Source: Escherichia phage LHE287 | DNA: 64,000 bases | Reading direction: 5' to 3' (one strand) | Sequence record: PP761450.1 | Shown: piece after piece, positions 651 through 63,345 of the stretch | Layout of the letters: each line of letters starts with the position of its first letter | How positions within the stretch are numbered: position 1 is the first letter of the stretch | The notes under the pieces: generated by a model | The model's database searches: none | The model's input: only the letters and a program-made list of their open reading frames with translations | Told to the model about the DNA's origin: nothing | Made by a program: the position numbers and the translations under genes

Positions 651-724
651 AGGAGCATAGCTAAGCGGTAAGGCAATGGGTTTGATCCCATGATCTCAGG
701 TTCGACTCCTGACGCGCTCTCCCA
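651..724 (+). tRNA. tRNA-like element, possibly a degenerate tRNA; anticodon unresolved
   Basis: Canonical T-arm TCAGG-TTCGACT-CCTGA and D-loop AGCGGTAA, but the acceptor stem pairs poorly and the anticodon hairpin ATGGG-TTTGAT-CCCAT has a 6-nt loop. Confidence 0.3.
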
Positions 725-5628: not shown

Positions 5629-8628
5629 ATGACCGTTTTCTATACGAACGTTGCCCGCAGGGGCAATGACCTGTTGATTCGAATTGCAGATGACATGGGT
5701 AATCGCCGTCTGTTGAAAAAGAAATTCGAACCCACTCTCTATTTACCCACGGCTGACTATTCAAATGTTGAAAAGGTCGGTCTTCTCAATGAACCCCTGG
5801 TAGCCAAGCAGTTCCCTTCCATGCGTGACGCTGACAACTATCTTGAAGAGTACAAGGAAGTCCAGGGTGCTTCCATTTACGGACAGACCGATTATGCATA
5901 CCAGTTCATCGCCCATAGCTTTCCTGGAAAGATTGAGCCGGATTACTCCAACATCCATATTGCTAACCTCGATATCGAAGTGTTCTCCGCCGGGTGGAAA
6001 GACGGAAAGATGACCAAAGGTCCATTCCCTCACCCAACCATTGAGCAGCAGACGTTCAAAGGGAATGAGGCGCGCATTCGCCGCTTCCATAAACAAGTGC
6101 TGGCTAACCATGAATTTGTCCGTGAGCACTTCCCTGGTTCTTTCATCAGCAACAACGTCACTGATCAGTTCCCTATCATTGATAGCAATGGCAAGATCAC
6201 CCAGGACATGAATGCGGCGTTCCCCATTACCCTGATCCAGCTTCAGGATATGGCGACCAATAAGTTCATGGTCTGGGGTATGCCCTGTGCCAAAGATCGT
6301 AACAAATTCGCATACGACACCGAAGACAAAGAGATCGGCGGCCTTGAGGTTGTTTATCAGGAGTTCACCACCGAACAAGATCTGCTGCGCTCGTTCCTAG
6401 ACTTCTGGTCACAGCGTCAGTTCGACGGCTGGACAGGCTGGAACATTGAGACGTTTGATAGCCCTTATCTTGTTGAGCGCATGAATCAGGTTCTGGGTGA
6501 AGCCGAAACATCGCGCCTCAGTCCTTGGGGTATCATTAAGAAGCGTATCATTCGCGATAAGAAGGGCGATATCACGACGTATCAGTTCGTGGGTTGCCCT
6601 ATGCTCGATTATATGCAGATCTACAAGAAACACACGTACACCACCCGTGAACGCTACTCTCTTGACTGGATTGCGTATTGTGAGCTGGGTGAGAAGAAGA
6701 TGGACTACAGTGAGAGCAAGTCGCTCTTTGATCTGTACTTCAACGACTACTGCAAACACACCCGATATGGTATCAAAGACGTTAAGCTGGTATGGCGACT
6801 TGAACAGAAGCTGCGCCTGCTCCAGCTGATGTTCGTCCTGGCCTACCGCACCAAGTCCAACTATGAAGACGGTCTGGGCACTGTGGCTCCGTGGCTGGCC
6901 ATGTGCTACTATCGCCTGTACGAGAAGGGGATAGTGCCTAAGATCCAGCGTGTATACGATGGTCCGACCGACTTTGAGGGCGCATACGTCATGGATGTGA
7001 CACCAGGAATCTACTTCTGGGTCTTCTCGGAAGATTTGAACTCCCTGTATCCTCACATCATACAGCAGTACAACCTCGGTCCAGAGACTATCGTTGGCGA
7101 CAAACACCAGCGCCGCGAGATTATTGAGGCTATGTGTGAAGAGCTGGCTGCTCAGATGAATAACATGGCAACGCCGATGCACAAACGTCGGTTGATGAAA
7201 GCCCTTCACGACAAGCTGTTGCGTGCGGTTGACGAACGCCTGCAGGTTGTTGATGAGTTGGTTGCCCTGGGTGAGTTCCACTTTGAAACCCTGCGCCGCT
7301 ACAACGTGTCGTTCACGCCGAACGTTCAATTCTTCAGCAACGAGAAGATGTCGTTCCTGTCTGAAATCATGCGTGGTATCTACAGCGACCGTAAAGTAGA
7401 GAAGGCCAAGGGTCTGAAGTATGAGCAGTGGGCTGGCTGGTGTAAAGAGATGTCGAAGGGCGACTTCCATCTTGAGTCTGCCATGAAGTCTCGCTACTAT
7501 GACCCAGAGTGGTATGAAGAGCACAAGAACATTGATCTTGATGCCCTGACCGAAGTGATGAAGAAGTGGGAAGACCTGGGCGTTGCTCAAGATACCCTAC
7601 AGCAAGGTCTGAAGATCTTGATGAACGCAGGTTATGGCGCTATCTCGAACGTCTGGTTCAAAGAGTACTTCAACCTCAACATTGCCGAAGCCATCACCAC
7701 ATCCGGTCAGCTGATCAACAAGTGGAACAAGCGTTACACTGATGACTATCTGAACAAGCTGTGTGGTACAACAGGCCAGGACTTCGTCATCGCAGGTGAT
7801 ACCGACTCCAACTACATCTGCATTGAGCGTCTTGTCAAGCAGTTGTGGCCTGATGTTACTGACCATCATGCTATGGTTGATAATATCGACCAATGGATCA
7901 AAGACAACTACCAGCCGAAGACCAATGAGTGGGCACAGCTTCTGTGTAACACCATGAACGGATTTGAACAGCGCATGGTATGGGAGCGTGAGGTCATTGC
8001 GTCAGCCGCTGTCTGGCGAGCCAAGAAGATGTATGCCATGGCCGTGTACGACAGTGAGGGTATCAAGTACGAGAAGCCGAAGATCAAGTTCAAAGGTCTG
8101 GAAGCCCGCAAGTCCACCACGCCGGAATGGTGTCGTGAGCGTCTTGTCAAGTGTTATGAGAAGATCCTACTCGGCACCGAAGAGGAAGTACAGGCGCTCA
8201 TCTCCCAGTACAAAGAGGAGTACATGAAACTCTCTGTAGACGATATCGCCAAGGCTTCCGGCGTGTCCGACATAGAGAAGTGTGTGGCTGCTGACGGATC
8301 GTTCATCTCTGGTGCTCATTTTGCTGCCAAGGCGTGTGTGGGCTACAACCGTCTGGTTGAGAAGAACGAAGATCTGGGTCTACCGATGATCGAGTCGGGT
8401 GATAAGGTACAGATGGTGTTGTTGAAGCCGGGCAACCCGTTTGGGCAGAACTACTTTGCATATCCTGAGTTCTTCCCCGAGGAGCTTGGTCTGGGCAAAT
8501 GGGTGGATTATCAGGCGGCCTTTGAGAAGTCCTTCATTGATCCGATTCAGTCTATCCTCGACGTGGTCGGCTGGTCACACAAGCGCCGTGTGAACCTTCT
8601 TGCCATGATGCAAAAGAAGAAAGGTTGA
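5629..8628 (+). CDS. 43: family B DNA polymerase (T4 gp43-like), 999 aa
   Basis: Exonuclease motif LDIEV, polymerase motif A DLNSLYP, motif C GDTDS; size and T4-like genomic context. Confidence 0.95.
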   Translation: MTVFYTNVARRGNDLLIRIADDMGNRRLLKKKFEPTLYLPTADYSNVEKVGLLNEPLVAKQFPSMRDADNYLEEYKEVQGASIYGQTDYAYQFIAHSFPGKIEPDYSNIHIANLDIEVFSAGWKDGKMTKGPFPHPTIEQQTFKGNEARIRRFHKQVLANHEFVREHFPGSFISNNVTDQFPIIDSNGKITQDMNAAFPITLIQLQDMATNKFMVWGMPCAKDRNKFAYDTEDKEIGGLEVVYQEFTTEQDLLRSFLDFWSQRQFDGWTGWNIETFDSPYLVERMNQVLGEAETSRLSPWGIIKKRIIRDKKGDITTYQFVGCPMLDYMQIYKKHTYTTRERYSLDWIAYCELGEKKMDYSESKSLFDLYFNDYCKHTRYGIKDVKLVWRLEQKLRLLQLMFVLAYRTKSNYEDGLGTVAPWLAMCYYRLYEKGIVPKIQRVYDGPTDFEGAYVMDVTPGIYFWVFSEDLNSLYPHIIQQYNLGPETIVGDKHQRREIIEAMCEELAAQMNNMATPMHKRRLMKALHDKLLRAVDERLQVVDELVALGEFHFETLRRYNVSFTPNVQFFSNEKMSFLSEIMRGIYSDRKVEKAKGLKYEQWAGWCKEMSKGDFHLESAMKSRYYDPEWYEEHKNIDLDALTEVMKKWEDLGVAQDTLQQGLKILMNAGYGAISNVWFKEYFNLNIAEAITTSGQLINKWNKRYTDDYLNKLCGTTGQDFVIAGDTDSNYICIERLVKQLWPDVTDHHAMVDNIDQWIKDNYQPKTNEWAQLLCNTMNGFEQRMVWEREVIASAAVWRAKKMYAMAVYDSEGIKYEKPKIKFKGLEARKSTTPEWCRERLVKCYEKILLGTEEEVQALISQYKEEYMKLSVDDIAKASGVSDIEKCVAADGSFISGAHFAAKACVGYNRLVEKNEDLGLPMIESGDKVQMVLLKPGNPFGQNYFAYPEFFPEELGLGKWVDYQAAFEKSFIDPIQSILDVVGWSHKRRVNLLAMMQKKKG

Positions 8629-59961: not shown

Positions 59962-60768
59962 ATGAATTTACCATCATTGCCCAGAACAGAAAAGACATAT
60001 AAAAGCGACTTTTGGCCTACTGTGATCAAATATCGCGCCTTTACTGCGGGGCAACAAACTTTATTACTTCAGGTGTCAGATCCGCAAACGCCGATTGAAG
60101 AACGAGCGGCCATGATGGAGAGTCTCTTTAGCGAGTGTGTAAATGCAGGCGCACCTTTCAGTAAACTGCCAATCGGCGTTGTTGAGGAAGTGTTCATCCG
60201 CATGCGCATGATCTCCATCGGTGAATTGATGAAGATTCGTTATAAGTGTAATAATCAGATTGAAGAAACGATCGATCTGGGAGATGGTCAAGAAAAGCAC
60301 CAGATGGTTCCCTGTGAGCAGGAACTGACTCTACCTATCCCGTTGAACAACGTCAAATGCATTGCTCAGGACGGCTTCCGGGAGACGTTTGACCTGCCAG
60401 GTGGATATCACCTCAAGATGCGCCAACCTTCCTTCTCGGACGCTACGGCACTGTCTGATGCTGCAAGCGTTGAGATGATGCTGACCACCTTTATCGACTG
60501 TCTGTACGATGATGACGGTCAGGTGTGGAAGGTTGAGAATCCTGAAGAAATCGGAATCACTCCGGAAGAGGCTACTGAGCGCCGCCGTGTGAAAGAAGCG
60601 TTTGTTGAGTGGGTGAAGGATAACATCGAATCAGATGTTATTGACAGCATTACGAAGAACTTCTTCCACAAAATACCGCGCATCCACTACAAGAGTTCGA
60701 TCAAGTGTCCGAAATGTGGTAAGGAGCACAAAATCGAATTCAATAGTATTAATGAAATTTTCATTTAA
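59962..60768 (+). CDS. hypothetical protein with C-terminal zinc ribbon, possibly a baseplate assembly protein
   Basis: Internal ATG with GGAGA RBS; C-terminal SSIKCPKCGKEH; followed by a strong terminator. Confidence 0.4.
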   Translation: MNLPSLPRTEKTYKSDFWPTVIKYRAFTAGQQTLLLQVSDPQTPIEERAAMMESLFSECVNAGAPFSKLPIGVVEEVFIRMRMISIGELMKIRYKCNNQIEETIDLGDGQEKHQMVPCEQELTLPIPLNNVKCIAQDGFRETFDLPGGYHLKMRQPSFSDATALSDAASVEMMLTTFIDCLYDDDGQVWKVENPEEIGITPEEATERRRVKEAFVEWVKDNIESDVIDSITKNFFHKIPRIHYKSSIKCPKCGKEHKIEFNSINEIFI

Positions 60769-60915
60769 TGTTTGAAACTGATTTATTATCCTACTTCGTG
60801 ATGTGTGATGAATTGAAGTTACACGGCTATAGCATATTTGAAATCAACGAGTCGATGCCATGGCATCTTGACTTGTTAACCGAAGCCCTCAAGGTCAGGT
60901 TGTCTAAGAAACAGT

Positions 60916-60942
60916 AATCCCGCTTCGGCGGGATTTTTATTG
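60916..60942 (+). terminator. rho-independent terminator
   Basis: AATCCCGC-ttcg-GCGGGATT followed by TTTTATT. Confidence 0.75.
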
Positions 60943-61280
60943 GCTTAACTGTAAAATCGGTTAACACGAACTTTCTTTACCTGAAATTGCTATAATGGGC
61001 TTGTTCCCGAGTTATTTGTTGGTGTTTGTCTGTTTTGAATCAGATTGTCAGTAAAATACCATTTTTCAAGGAGTGTTCTGGGGTGTACAGTTATTGCCTC
61101 GCCCTTATGCCTCCATGGCATTGGAATGGTGCTGCCCGCATAGGGCGGTTTGATGAGCGAAGCGAATAGGATCGAATAAAACAAATAAAATGAACGGAAG
61201 CAGAGCTTCCTATAGTATATAAGGCAAAATCAGCTGCGCATAAATACCTTCAAATCCTTGTTTGACAACCGGAATTCAAT

Positions 61281-62891
61281 ATGTTAGACAATATGAGATG
61301 GTTTTACGGCACCGTTGAAGATGTCAACGATCCAGACCAAAATGGGCGAGTTGCTGTTCGCATATATGGCGTACACACCGACGATCCCGTCCTCCTGCCT
61401 ACGGACAAACTCCCATGGGCGAAGGTACTGATGCCTGCTTCTAACGCCTCCTCTGCTGGTTTAGGTTGGTCTCCAACGGGCATCATTCCTGGTACTGAGG
61501 TTATGGGGTTCGCCCTTGACGAAGCATACCAGAATTTACGCATCACCTGGACTTGGACTGGTTCAAGTCCTACTGATGGTGCCGACACAAACCCACTGGC
61601 TCTCGGGCAGGTCGTTCAATCTGTAGAACGTCAGGCGTACAACGCCGTCACTGACGTTCCTGTGAAACAAGAAGACGAACCACAACCAGATCCACAACCA
61701 CCTGTTGGTGGGTATGATCCAGAGAAGTGGATGACAATCGCTCGTGGCGAATTAGGTATCAAGGAGTATGCCGGAAAGTTCAACAACAACCCGCGCATTA
61801 TAGAATATCACAAGACAACCTCCCTTGGTGCTTCTGAAGATGAAGTGTCGTGGTGTGCGGCGTTCGTGGGTTGGGTTATGATACAGGCTGGATACACGTC
61901 TACACGCTCCGCTCTTGCCCGATCTTACCTTACATGGGGCACTCCACTGTCAGCACCACAATATGGCGCTATCGTAGTCTTCCGGCGTGGTAACAACCCT
62001 ACATTTGGACACGTAGCGTTTGTGCAGAAGTTCGATGCAAACTATGTCTGGTGTATTGGTGGCAACCAATCCGATTCAGTGAAGGTCAGTCGTTTCAGAC
62101 GTTCTTCGGTCTTGGGATATCGTTGGCCTGGTCCTGCTAACACAGCCACAGCCGCGCCTGCGCAGCAGAATGGTAAATGGTCAGAACCTATCCCAGATCG
62201 TACTCCAAAGGAACAACCGACTCCGGCTCCTACTGGGCGAGTACAGGATATTGACAACACTGGAGAAACCATGGTTCCGGCTGCGGGTGGCTCCAAATAC
62301 CCGTACAATAACGTCATGGTGTCCCGAGCTGGGCATATTATGGAAGTGGATGACACCCCTGGTGGTGAACGTCTTCACTGGATGCATAAGTCTGGGTCTT
62401 ACAAGCAAATGTTGCCGGATGGTGATGTGGTCAACAAGTCCGTCAAAGACCACTATGACCTGACGATGTTCAACAAGCGTTATTATGTCGGCGGGGACCA
62501 CAACCTGACGGTCAAAGGAACTGAAGTTCAGCGCAAGACAGGTGAGGTCTATCATTTGCATTCCAACAACTACTCAAATGTGGTTGCGGGCACAGCGCTG
62601 ATGAAATTCAGTGACCTAGCGGAAATGCAAGCGCAGAATATTCTGCGCATTATCTGCGAGACTCTGGAGGTCGGCGGGACATTGAAGGTTCCTAAGATTC
62701 TAACGACTGAGATCATCGCTGACAAACTGACTGTCGCTCAGACGATCAATGGTAACATCATATATGCCGAAGGTGCTGGTCGCGCTTCTTCTCTGTCAGG
62801 TGCAACCCCTGCATCCCCTACGGGTCCGGGTGAGATTGACATCAAGGCAGAATTAAAAGACAATGGTGGTAATTTCGGCACCAAAGAGTAA
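61281..62891 (+). CDS. baseplate central spike (gpV-like N-domain) fused to a CHAP/NlpC-P60-type peptidoglycan hydrolase
   Basis: gpV-like N-terminus WFYGTVEDVNDPDQNGRVAVRIYGVHTDD; hydrolase region with Cys in EVSWCAAFVGWVM and His in NPTFGHVAFV. Confidence 0.55.
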   Translation: MLDNMRWFYGTVEDVNDPDQNGRVAVRIYGVHTDDPVLLPTDKLPWAKVLMPASNASSAGLGWSPTGIIPGTEVMGFALDEAYQNLRITWTWTGSSPTDGADTNPLALGQVVQSVERQAYNAVTDVPVKQEDEPQPDPQPPVGGYDPEKWMTIARGELGIKEYAGKFNNNPRIIEYHKTTSLGASEDEVSWCAAFVGWVMIQAGYTSTRSALARSYLTWGTPLSAPQYGAIVVFRRGNNPTFGHVAFVQKFDANYVWCIGGNQSDSVKVSRFRRSSVLGYRWPGPANTATAAPAQQNGKWSEPIPDRTPKEQPTPAPTGRVQDIDNTGETMVPAAGGSKYPYNNVMVSRAGHIMEVDDTPGGERLHWMHKSGSYKQMLPDGDVVNKSVKDHYDLTMFNKRYYVGGDHNLTVKGTEVQRKTGEVYHLHSNNYSNVVAGTALMKFSDLAEMQAQNILRIICETLEVGGTLKVPKILTTEIIADKLTVAQTINGNIIYAEGAGRASSLSGATPASPTGPGEIDIKAELKDNGGNFGTKE

Positions 62892-62964: not shown

Positions 62965-63345
62965 ATGAAAGAGTATAAAGATGTCGATCTGAAGTTCGGC
63001 ATGCATCCAGTGACCAAAGATGTCACCATGAAATCAGGTGTGTATGCTGTCTTACAATCCGTGCGGAATATCGTCATGTCTTCAGTCGGGGACTGGCCCA
63101 CTTATCCTGGGATCGGCGCGGGGCTTTATGGGCTGCTGGGTGAAAACACGACACCGACTATCCAGGTAGATGTGAAGAACAAAGTAGAGGACGCCATCGC
63201 CCTGTATGAACCCAGAGCAGAGGTAGAAGGAGTCACGGTGAGTCTGTCAGAGGATTACCATTCTCTGGGTGTGACCATCACATTCTATGTGGTCAACAAT
63301 CCAGATCCAATAACAGACACCGTGTGGTTGAAAAGGACGAATTAG
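62965..63345 (+). CDS. 25: gp25-like baseplate wedge protein (GPW/gp25 family)
   Basis: 126 aa; N-terminal LKFGMHPVTKD...VLQSVRNIVMS pattern typical of the family; directly downstream of the spike gene. Confidence 0.5.
   Translation: MKEYKDVDLKFGMHPVTKDVTMKSGVYAVLQSVRNIVMSSVGDWPTYPGIGAGLYGLLGENTTPTIQVDVKNKVEDAIALYEPRAEVEGVTVSLSEDYHSLGVTITFYVVNNPDPITDTVWLKRTN

Follow-up and report, generated by a model that had tools for sequence, protein, structure and literature searches.

A gp5-type tail spike with a predicted cysteine peptidase domain in place of the lysozyme in an Ackermannviridae phage

The replacement of the lysozyme domain in a contractile-tail spike is already known, since it was described for phage CBA120 in 2011 (PMC3184105). 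In their 'Baseplate Lysozyme' section, Kutter et al. (2011, Virol J 8:430, PMC3184105) assigned to the CBA120 gp5 homologue a putative CHAP domain of the TIGR02594 family and NLPC_P60 superfamily at amino acids 150-282. The domain is flanked by regions shared with T4 gp5, at 3-109 and 334-437 (PMC3184105). Two orthologues have been placed in the virion. ORF61 of LIMEstone1 is given as a 'confirmed structural protein' on the basis of virion mass spectrometry, and the ViI orthologue was detected in virions by Pickard's mass-spectrometric proteomics, according to the account of that work in PMC3184105. Stand-alone TIGR02594 proteins have been described by others as peptidoglycan-degrading. In the literature searched and in the PDB, neither Ackermannviridae spikes nor TIGR02594 proteins turned up with any biochemical or structural data.

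We analysed the spike gene of Escherichia phage LHE287 within a window of 64,000 nucleotides (record PP761450.1). The features of the gene and its surroundings are listed in Table 1.

Table 1. Features of the spike gene and its neighbourhood, in window coordinates.
Feature	Position	Strand	Evidence or remark
gp26-like baseplate hub gene, upstream	59962..60768	+	Pfam T4_baseplate PF12322, E 4.9e-46; PHROG 150 'baseplate hub'
Small ORF (49 aa), weakly gp51 'baseplate hub assembly catalyst'-like	60768..60917	+	PHROG 9633 E 2.9e-39; PHROG 634 E 4.4e-4
Intrinsic-terminator-like hairpin followed by T-run	60916..60935	+	Terminator annotated in LIMEstone1 and Magnus records
S1, AUGCC/GGCAU	61107-11/61117-21	+	Predicted pseudoknot stem
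S2, CCAU (in S1 loop) with downstream AUGG	61113-16/61126-29	+	Predicted pseudoknot stem
Hairpin H2, GCUGCCC-GCAUA-GGGCGGU	61131-37/61143-49	+
CATAAATA, resembling the T4 late promoter TATAAATA	61239..61246	+	35 nt upstream of start codon
gp5-like central spike / baseplate hub gene	61281..62891	+	ATG-initiated ORF, 536 aa + stop codon
gp5-type OB-fold, N-terminal (residues 1-95)	61281..61565	+	Pfam Gp5_OB; aligns to T4 gp5
Linker 1 (residues 96-149)	61566..61727	+	Pro/Glu-rich toward its end
CHAP / TIGR02594 (NlpC-P60 superfamily) cysteine peptidase domain (residues 150-282)	61728..62126	+
Predicted catalytic Cys192 codon	61854..61856	+	Invariant in 36 homologues and 23 orthologues
Predicted catalytic His244 codon	62010..62012	+	Invariant in both alignments
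Asn262 codon (GGNQ motif), candidate third catalytic residue	62064..62066	+	Invariant; proposed catalytic role
Linker 2 (residues 283-336)	62127..62288	+	Pro/Thr-rich, with invariant residues (NGKWSEPIPDRTP)
gp5C-like region (residues 337-432), beginning of trimeric beta-helix needle	62289..62576	+	T4 gp5 alignment
Distal C-terminal part (residues 433-536)	62577..62888	+	Ends in invariant L..D.GGNF motif
gp25-like baseplate wedge gene, downstream	62965..63345	+	Pfam GPW_gp25 PF04965, E 9.4e-8; PHROG 261, 43

Architecture and spread of the spike protein

The spike ORF lies at the position given in the original prediction; it is on the + strand, begins with ATG and encodes 536 amino acids. Its product is identical in amino acid sequence to gp068 of Escherichia phage vB_EcoM-RPN242 (99.4% identity in DNA), and by sequence the source phage is placed in the Aglimvirinae (Ackermannviridae) as a ViI-like phage. 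Close copies of the gene occur in 121 phage records (megablast), and at least 80% of the spike protein is covered in 279 deposited records (tblastn). Full-length orthologues in a large protein collection range from 99% down to 58% identity and from 532 to 617 amino acids in length. All of them, including those of Vi01, Serratia phage 3M and Erwinia phage phiEa2809, contain both Gp5_OB and CHAP.

The N-terminus carries an OB-fold, as foreseen, but one better described as gp5-type than as the gpV type originally proposed. Gp5_OB (PF06714) matches residues 39-96 in Pfam (E 1.9e-12, 48.1 bits vs a cut-off of 25), while the gpV model PF04717 stays below threshold there (15.8 bits vs 23.8). Residues 3-93 align to residues 6-101 of T4 gp5 (1k28/1pdl; phmmer, i-Evalue ~9e-15), and strands are predicted at residues 6-92 in an AF2 model. 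Toward the C-terminus, residues 338-432 align to T4 gp5 385-477 (i-Evalue 2.6e-13), and there is a match to residues 385-464 of 9f4a, a related spike. Over 1k28, 1pdl and 9f4a together, the aligned segments of the query are confined to 1-93 and 337-432, opposite gp5 4-101 and 385-477. Alignments to the T4 gp5 structures 1k28 and 1pdl skip query residues 94-337, and a Pfam search returned no lysozyme family anywhere in the spike even at E<=1. The claim that a CHAP/NlpC-P60-type hydrolase stands in place of the T4 lysozyme is thus upheld by the Pfam and NCBIfam matches and by the way the gp5 structures bypass the middle of the protein. It had been placed at about residues 170-280; the domain is there, but it spans 150-282. 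Because the GH24 lysozyme domain is absent, the spike is a gp5 orthologue in its scaffold and not a 'tail lysozyme'. That label, which appears in most GenBank records ('cell wall-associated hydrolase' is used in several), is enzymatically wrong for this gene.

Two linkers flank the peptidase domain. Linker 1 has no family match in Pfam and a pLDDT below 50 in the AF2 model, and is partly conserved among orthologues, for example at GADTNPLALGQ. Linker 2 contains the nearly invariant stretch NGKWSEPIPDRTP at residues 297-309 (window 62169-62207) in the orthologue alignment. Its position is that of the T4 gp5 linker bearing the maturation cleavage site, and the NGKWSEPIPDRTP stretch could serve for docking, autoinhibition or cleavage. 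The distal C-terminus (433-536) has no Pfam match, including to the Gp5_C repeats (PF06715, PF22178). The C-terminal 107 amino acids gave 12 weak, mostly repeat-like matches among 1.84 billion representative proteins and no recognisable tip domain. The motif L..D.GGNF lies at residues 525-532 (window 62853-62876) and is invariant in 23 of 23 orthologues. Orthologues of the Serratia- and Erwinia-phage type (605-617 aa; 3M, phiEa2809) continue beyond it with a Ser/Thr-rich linker of ~80 amino acids and a small conserved terminal domain that reads ...ILRQxGSKPxxxxSNGxxWE. The extreme C-terminal element of the spike may serve as a tip or bind a partner. A full-length AF2 monomer built with 23 orthologues has a mean pLDDT of 49.1, so neither domain placement nor the C-terminal needle can be read from it; moderate confidence is confined to the OB and peptidase domains, and the distal C-terminus falls below 50.

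Some annotations in related records differ from those of the window. In the near-identical phage ZQ1, the annotated gp5 CDS lacks 150 nt (50 codons) at its 5' end (L007 26556 vs 26406, which is 76556 vs 76406 in the ZQ1 record). The same record splits DNA polymerase into three pieces with an ORF between; a single 999-aa ORF lies at window 5629..8628 and was taken by position as DNA polymerase. A weak third tRNA-like match at window 651-720 (Rfam, 32 bits vs a gathering score of 29; no ARAGORN call) adjoins tRNA-Met (230-306) and tRNA-Tyr (561-644).

The peptidase domain and its candidate bonds

The domain search that the original prediction had proposed as a check returned peptidase matches. 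CHAP (PF05257, Pfam) covers residues 187-262 (E 5.7e-11, 43.2 bits vs a cut-off of 26), and TIGR02594 (NCBIfam) matches end to end at residues 150-282 (E 8.7e-38, 129.6 bits vs 70.55). On these results the observation is real and well beyond chance. The motifs quoted in that prediction are also present, with SWCAAFVGWVM at residues 190-200 (Cys192) and GHVAFV at 243-248 (His244). In alignments with CwlO and Tae3, the Cys192 motif falls on their Cys motif and GHV on their GHV/GHM. Residues 143-298 have 1,290 homologues by sequence search, of which the best stand-alone ones are 135-220 amino acids long and 50-59% identical. Homologues are often fused to PG_binding_1, SH3_3 or LysM, and others to a GH108 muramidase with PG_binding_3; these fusion partners are typical of cell-wall hydrolase architectures.

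Residues Asp187, Trp191, Cys192, Gly243-His244-Val245 and Gly261-Asn262, among others, are invariant in an alignment with 35 homologues and again across the 23 full-length orthologues. No segment of the protein is better conserved than the peptidase domain, which has 84% mean identity and 46% invariant columns vs 21-30% in the other segments. Such strong conservation of the domain and its catalytic residues argues for an active enzyme.

A search of the domain profile against PDB sequences gave nothing significant (best Tae3, E 0.06), and fold comparison was therefore used. It revealed a papain-like alpha+beta fold, with the highest scores for Acd24020 (15.1), LytE (14.5), RipB (13.3), SagA (13.2) and CwlO (13.1), followed by the diffocin hub-hydrolase (13.0), MepS (13.0), Tae3 (10.7) and CHAP lysins such as LysGH15 (~10.6). 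Foldseek agrees with this comparison (best E 1.5e-4).

Taken together, the gene very probably encodes the gp5-orthologue central spike of an Ackermannviridae contractile tail, in which a TIGR02594 cysteine peptidase replaces the lysozyme and opens peptidoglycan. This reading is based on the architecture, catalytic-residue conservation, fold, baseplate gene context and family-wide distribution found in the present analysis, and on the orthologue literature for presence in the virion; the trimer, periplasmic delivery, enzymatic activity and choice of bond are inferred. As a homologue of T4 gp5, the spike would trimerise, its N-terminal OB-folds lying beneath a gp27-like hub where the tail tube ends, and its C-terminal portions would wind around each other into a beta-helix needle that sheath contraction pushes through the outer membrane. 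In the periplasm, the peptidase (Cys192, His244 and probably Asn262) would open the peptidoglycan locally and let the tail tube reach the inner membrane.

CHAP and NlpC/P60 families cut a peptide or amide bond, and lysozyme cuts a glycan bond. The spike may thus reasonably be expected, as the original prediction had it, to cut a different peptidoglycan bond from lysozyme. The cut would fall in peptide stems or cross-links, most likely at the gamma-D-Glu-meso-DAP bond, and not in the glycan strand. The gamma-D-Glu-mDAP bond is favoured because the best structural matches of the domain, its top neighbours in the fold comparison, are DL-endopeptidases with that specificity. The assignment is ambiguous in that Tae3 is the best, non-significant (E 0.06) match in the PDB and MepS is among the fold matches. 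It is conceivable, at rather less than even chances, that the spike carries a DD-endopeptidase that cuts mDAP-D-Ala cross-links like the T6SS effector Tae3 or MepS, in which case it would un-crosslink and loosen the sacculus.

A broader departure from the T4 model seems unlikely. The peptidase would then be no simple lysozyme substitute, having a specificity undocumented for the tails of myoviruses that infect Gram-negative hosts and perhaps being inhibited by linker 2 (NGKWSEPIPDRTP). Tae3-like cutting of mDAP-D-Ala cross-links could be such a specificity. The unusually well conserved linker 2 could hold the peptidase inactive until the needle dissociates. If true, inhibition by linker 2 would be a distinct activation mechanism, and the specificity would be the first for TIGR02594 (>1,000 proteins), as no member appears to have been characterised. 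Some CHAP domains are N-acetylmuramoyl-L-alanine amidases, and it is quite improbable that the spike enzyme is one of them and strips peptides off the glycan.

A main role in end-of-infection lysis or lysis-from-without, and not in entry, is highly improbable. Several siphophages have stand-alone TIGR02594 proteins with an endolysin annotation, but the peptidase here sits between a spike OB-fold and a needle, and its orthologues are virion components. The closest genome also has its own N-acetylmuramidase endolysin, RPN242_gp077, so that entry and exit seem to rely on distinct chemistries. Least credible is a catalytically dead structural or binding module, such as a peptidoglycan grip or spacer: the gp5 of Vibrio phage K364 (OB and gp5C only) does manage without an enzyme, but Cys, His and Asn are invariant in ~60 sequences in what is the most conserved part of the protein. 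In practical terms, the isolated domain is a candidate peptidoglycan hydrolase against Enterobacterales.

Baseplate gene context and an upstream RNA-like motif

The spike gene lies within a conserved baseplate cluster. The order of gp26-like gene, gp51-like ORF, terminator, gap, spike and gp25-like gene is kept in Limestonevirus, Taipeivirus, Kuttervirus and Agtrevirus. From the gp51-like ORF to the spike gene there is an unannotated gap (60916-61280) of ~345 nt, whose length is conserved in four genera; it opens with the terminator hairpin and closes with CATAAATA. Upstream of the spike start codon, CATAAATA is invariant in 5 genomes, and LIMEstone1 has an annotated putative late promoter at the corresponding site. 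For the gp6-like gene, CTAAATA is found at a distance corresponding to that of CATAAATA from the spike gene.

The gap also contains an RNA-like motif, which is less ordinary than the spike domain swap itself. Its core, at window 61107-61149 in a conserved block of ~61060-61215, is far more conserved than its flanks within the gap and can form a compact H-type pseudoknot with a hairpin directly after it. A paralogous copy lies in the same sense upstream of the gp6-like baseplate wedge gene, outside the window (L006 9114-9196, minus). A pattern scan of viral contigs returned 50 loci, and most of the ~155-kb contigs matched carry the motif twice. Each of the 16 pairs is retained in 99.8-100% of cells, compared with only 21-55% in slid controls, and five pairs show compensatory changes. 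The S1 sequence differs between the two paralogues, an S2 A-U pair is replaced by C-G in both copies of the Klebsiella phages, and a hairpin pair changes from C-G to U-A. None of 500 shuffles matched the observed covariation score. The covariation is suggestive rather than proof, since the sequences are few and related. A 216-nt region folds with z = -3.6, and Rfam has no family for the motif or the intergenic region.

The motif lies ~90-130 nt upstream of CATAAATA (61239-61246). If that promoter is the start site, the motif falls outside the late mRNA. Either a small RNA or an early or middle leader may contain it. The structure is specific to the sense strand because of its G-U pairs, which speaks against a DNA cruciform or an antisense RNA; both are unlikely. 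A tiny ORF (MALEWCCPHRAV) is also an unlikely explanation of the conserved block, as Klebsiella phages lack its ATG and the substitutions found there compensate for pairing and are not synonymous. Equally unlikely is a 64-aa minus-strand ORF (60990..61184), whose frame is broken by 1- and 2-nt indels between genera. Weak covariance-model matches in two further contigs (L047, L023) fall within long ORFs of unrelated GC-rich sequence and were set aside as chance. In Escherichia phage ZQ1, the gp45-like clamp gene is preceded by a third site (L008 18419-18462, minus) that has the flanks only (AACAACGAG ... UUAUGAGCGAAGCGAAUAGGAU). The 43-nt structured core is absent there. The flanks and core of the element are suggested to be separable modules.

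Modularity and comparison with known systems

The enzyme slot of gp5-type spikes varies among relatives. In metagenomic relatives, the gp5 OB-fold is followed by NlpC/P60 or VgrG3-like modules, or is combined with CHAP in proteins that lack a needle. The syntenic gp5 of Vibrio phage K364 (157 kb; L064 1177-2064) has 295 amino acids with OB and gp5C and no enzyme domain, and Rhizobium phage RHph_N34 (Pootjesviridae; L065 1501-2337) has OB and CHAP in 278 amino acids without a needle. From these two, the enzyme and needle modules of gp5-type spikes have therefore been gained or lost independently, and the enzyme is not obligatory in this type of tail, because relatives such as K364 have none. 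The enzyme of contractile-tail spikes is interchangeable: T4-like phages have a lysozyme there, Ackermannviridae and some Rhizobium phages have a TIGR02594 peptidase, and some Vibrio phages have none.

The original prediction had also suggested that the peptidase may reflect adaptation to the host cell wall. The host ranges give this no support. T4-like phages of Escherichia, Shigella, Salmonella and Klebsiella match the spike only in its OB and needle parts and have gp5 spikes that bear a lysozyme by annotation or solved structure, and the hosts of Ackermannviridae include those same genera. As both spike types share host genera, the enzyme module follows phage lineage and not host wall chemistry.

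Stand-alone TIGR02594 proteins, among them phage endolysins and T6SS-associated effectors, share 44-59% identity with residues 143-298, and their catalytic motifs are the same. They differ in being free, or fused to PG_binding_1, SH3, LysM or GH108, and are not embedded in a spike. NlpC/P60 or CHAP modules also occur in the hub or tip proteins of other contractile or short tails, namely the diffocin hub-hydrolase CD1368 (8v3w), the hub of Staphylococcus phage phi812 (9euf, 9eum) and gp10 of phage Andhra (8ej5). Their carriers are other than the gp5 OB and beta-helix, their targets are Gram-positive, and they have no detectable sequence similarity to the spike beyond the catalytic motifs.

T4 gp5 (1k28, 1pdl, 5iv5) shares with the present spike a homologous OB-fold and needle start, an enzyme inserted at the same topological position and its place as a hub component. 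It differs in that the enzyme is a GH24 lysozyme there and has a cysteine peptidase fold here, and the distal needle is shorter and divergent in the present protein, with no match to the Gp5_C repeat. Closest of all are the gp5 homologues of CBA120 and ViI, which belong to the same family (~84% identity to the present protein for Kuttervirus orthologues; length 536-541 aa) and share the domain boundaries and the gp26-gp5-gp25 synteny. The difference from these is one of taxon only, Kuttervirus there and Aglimvirinae here, and the architecture is alike.
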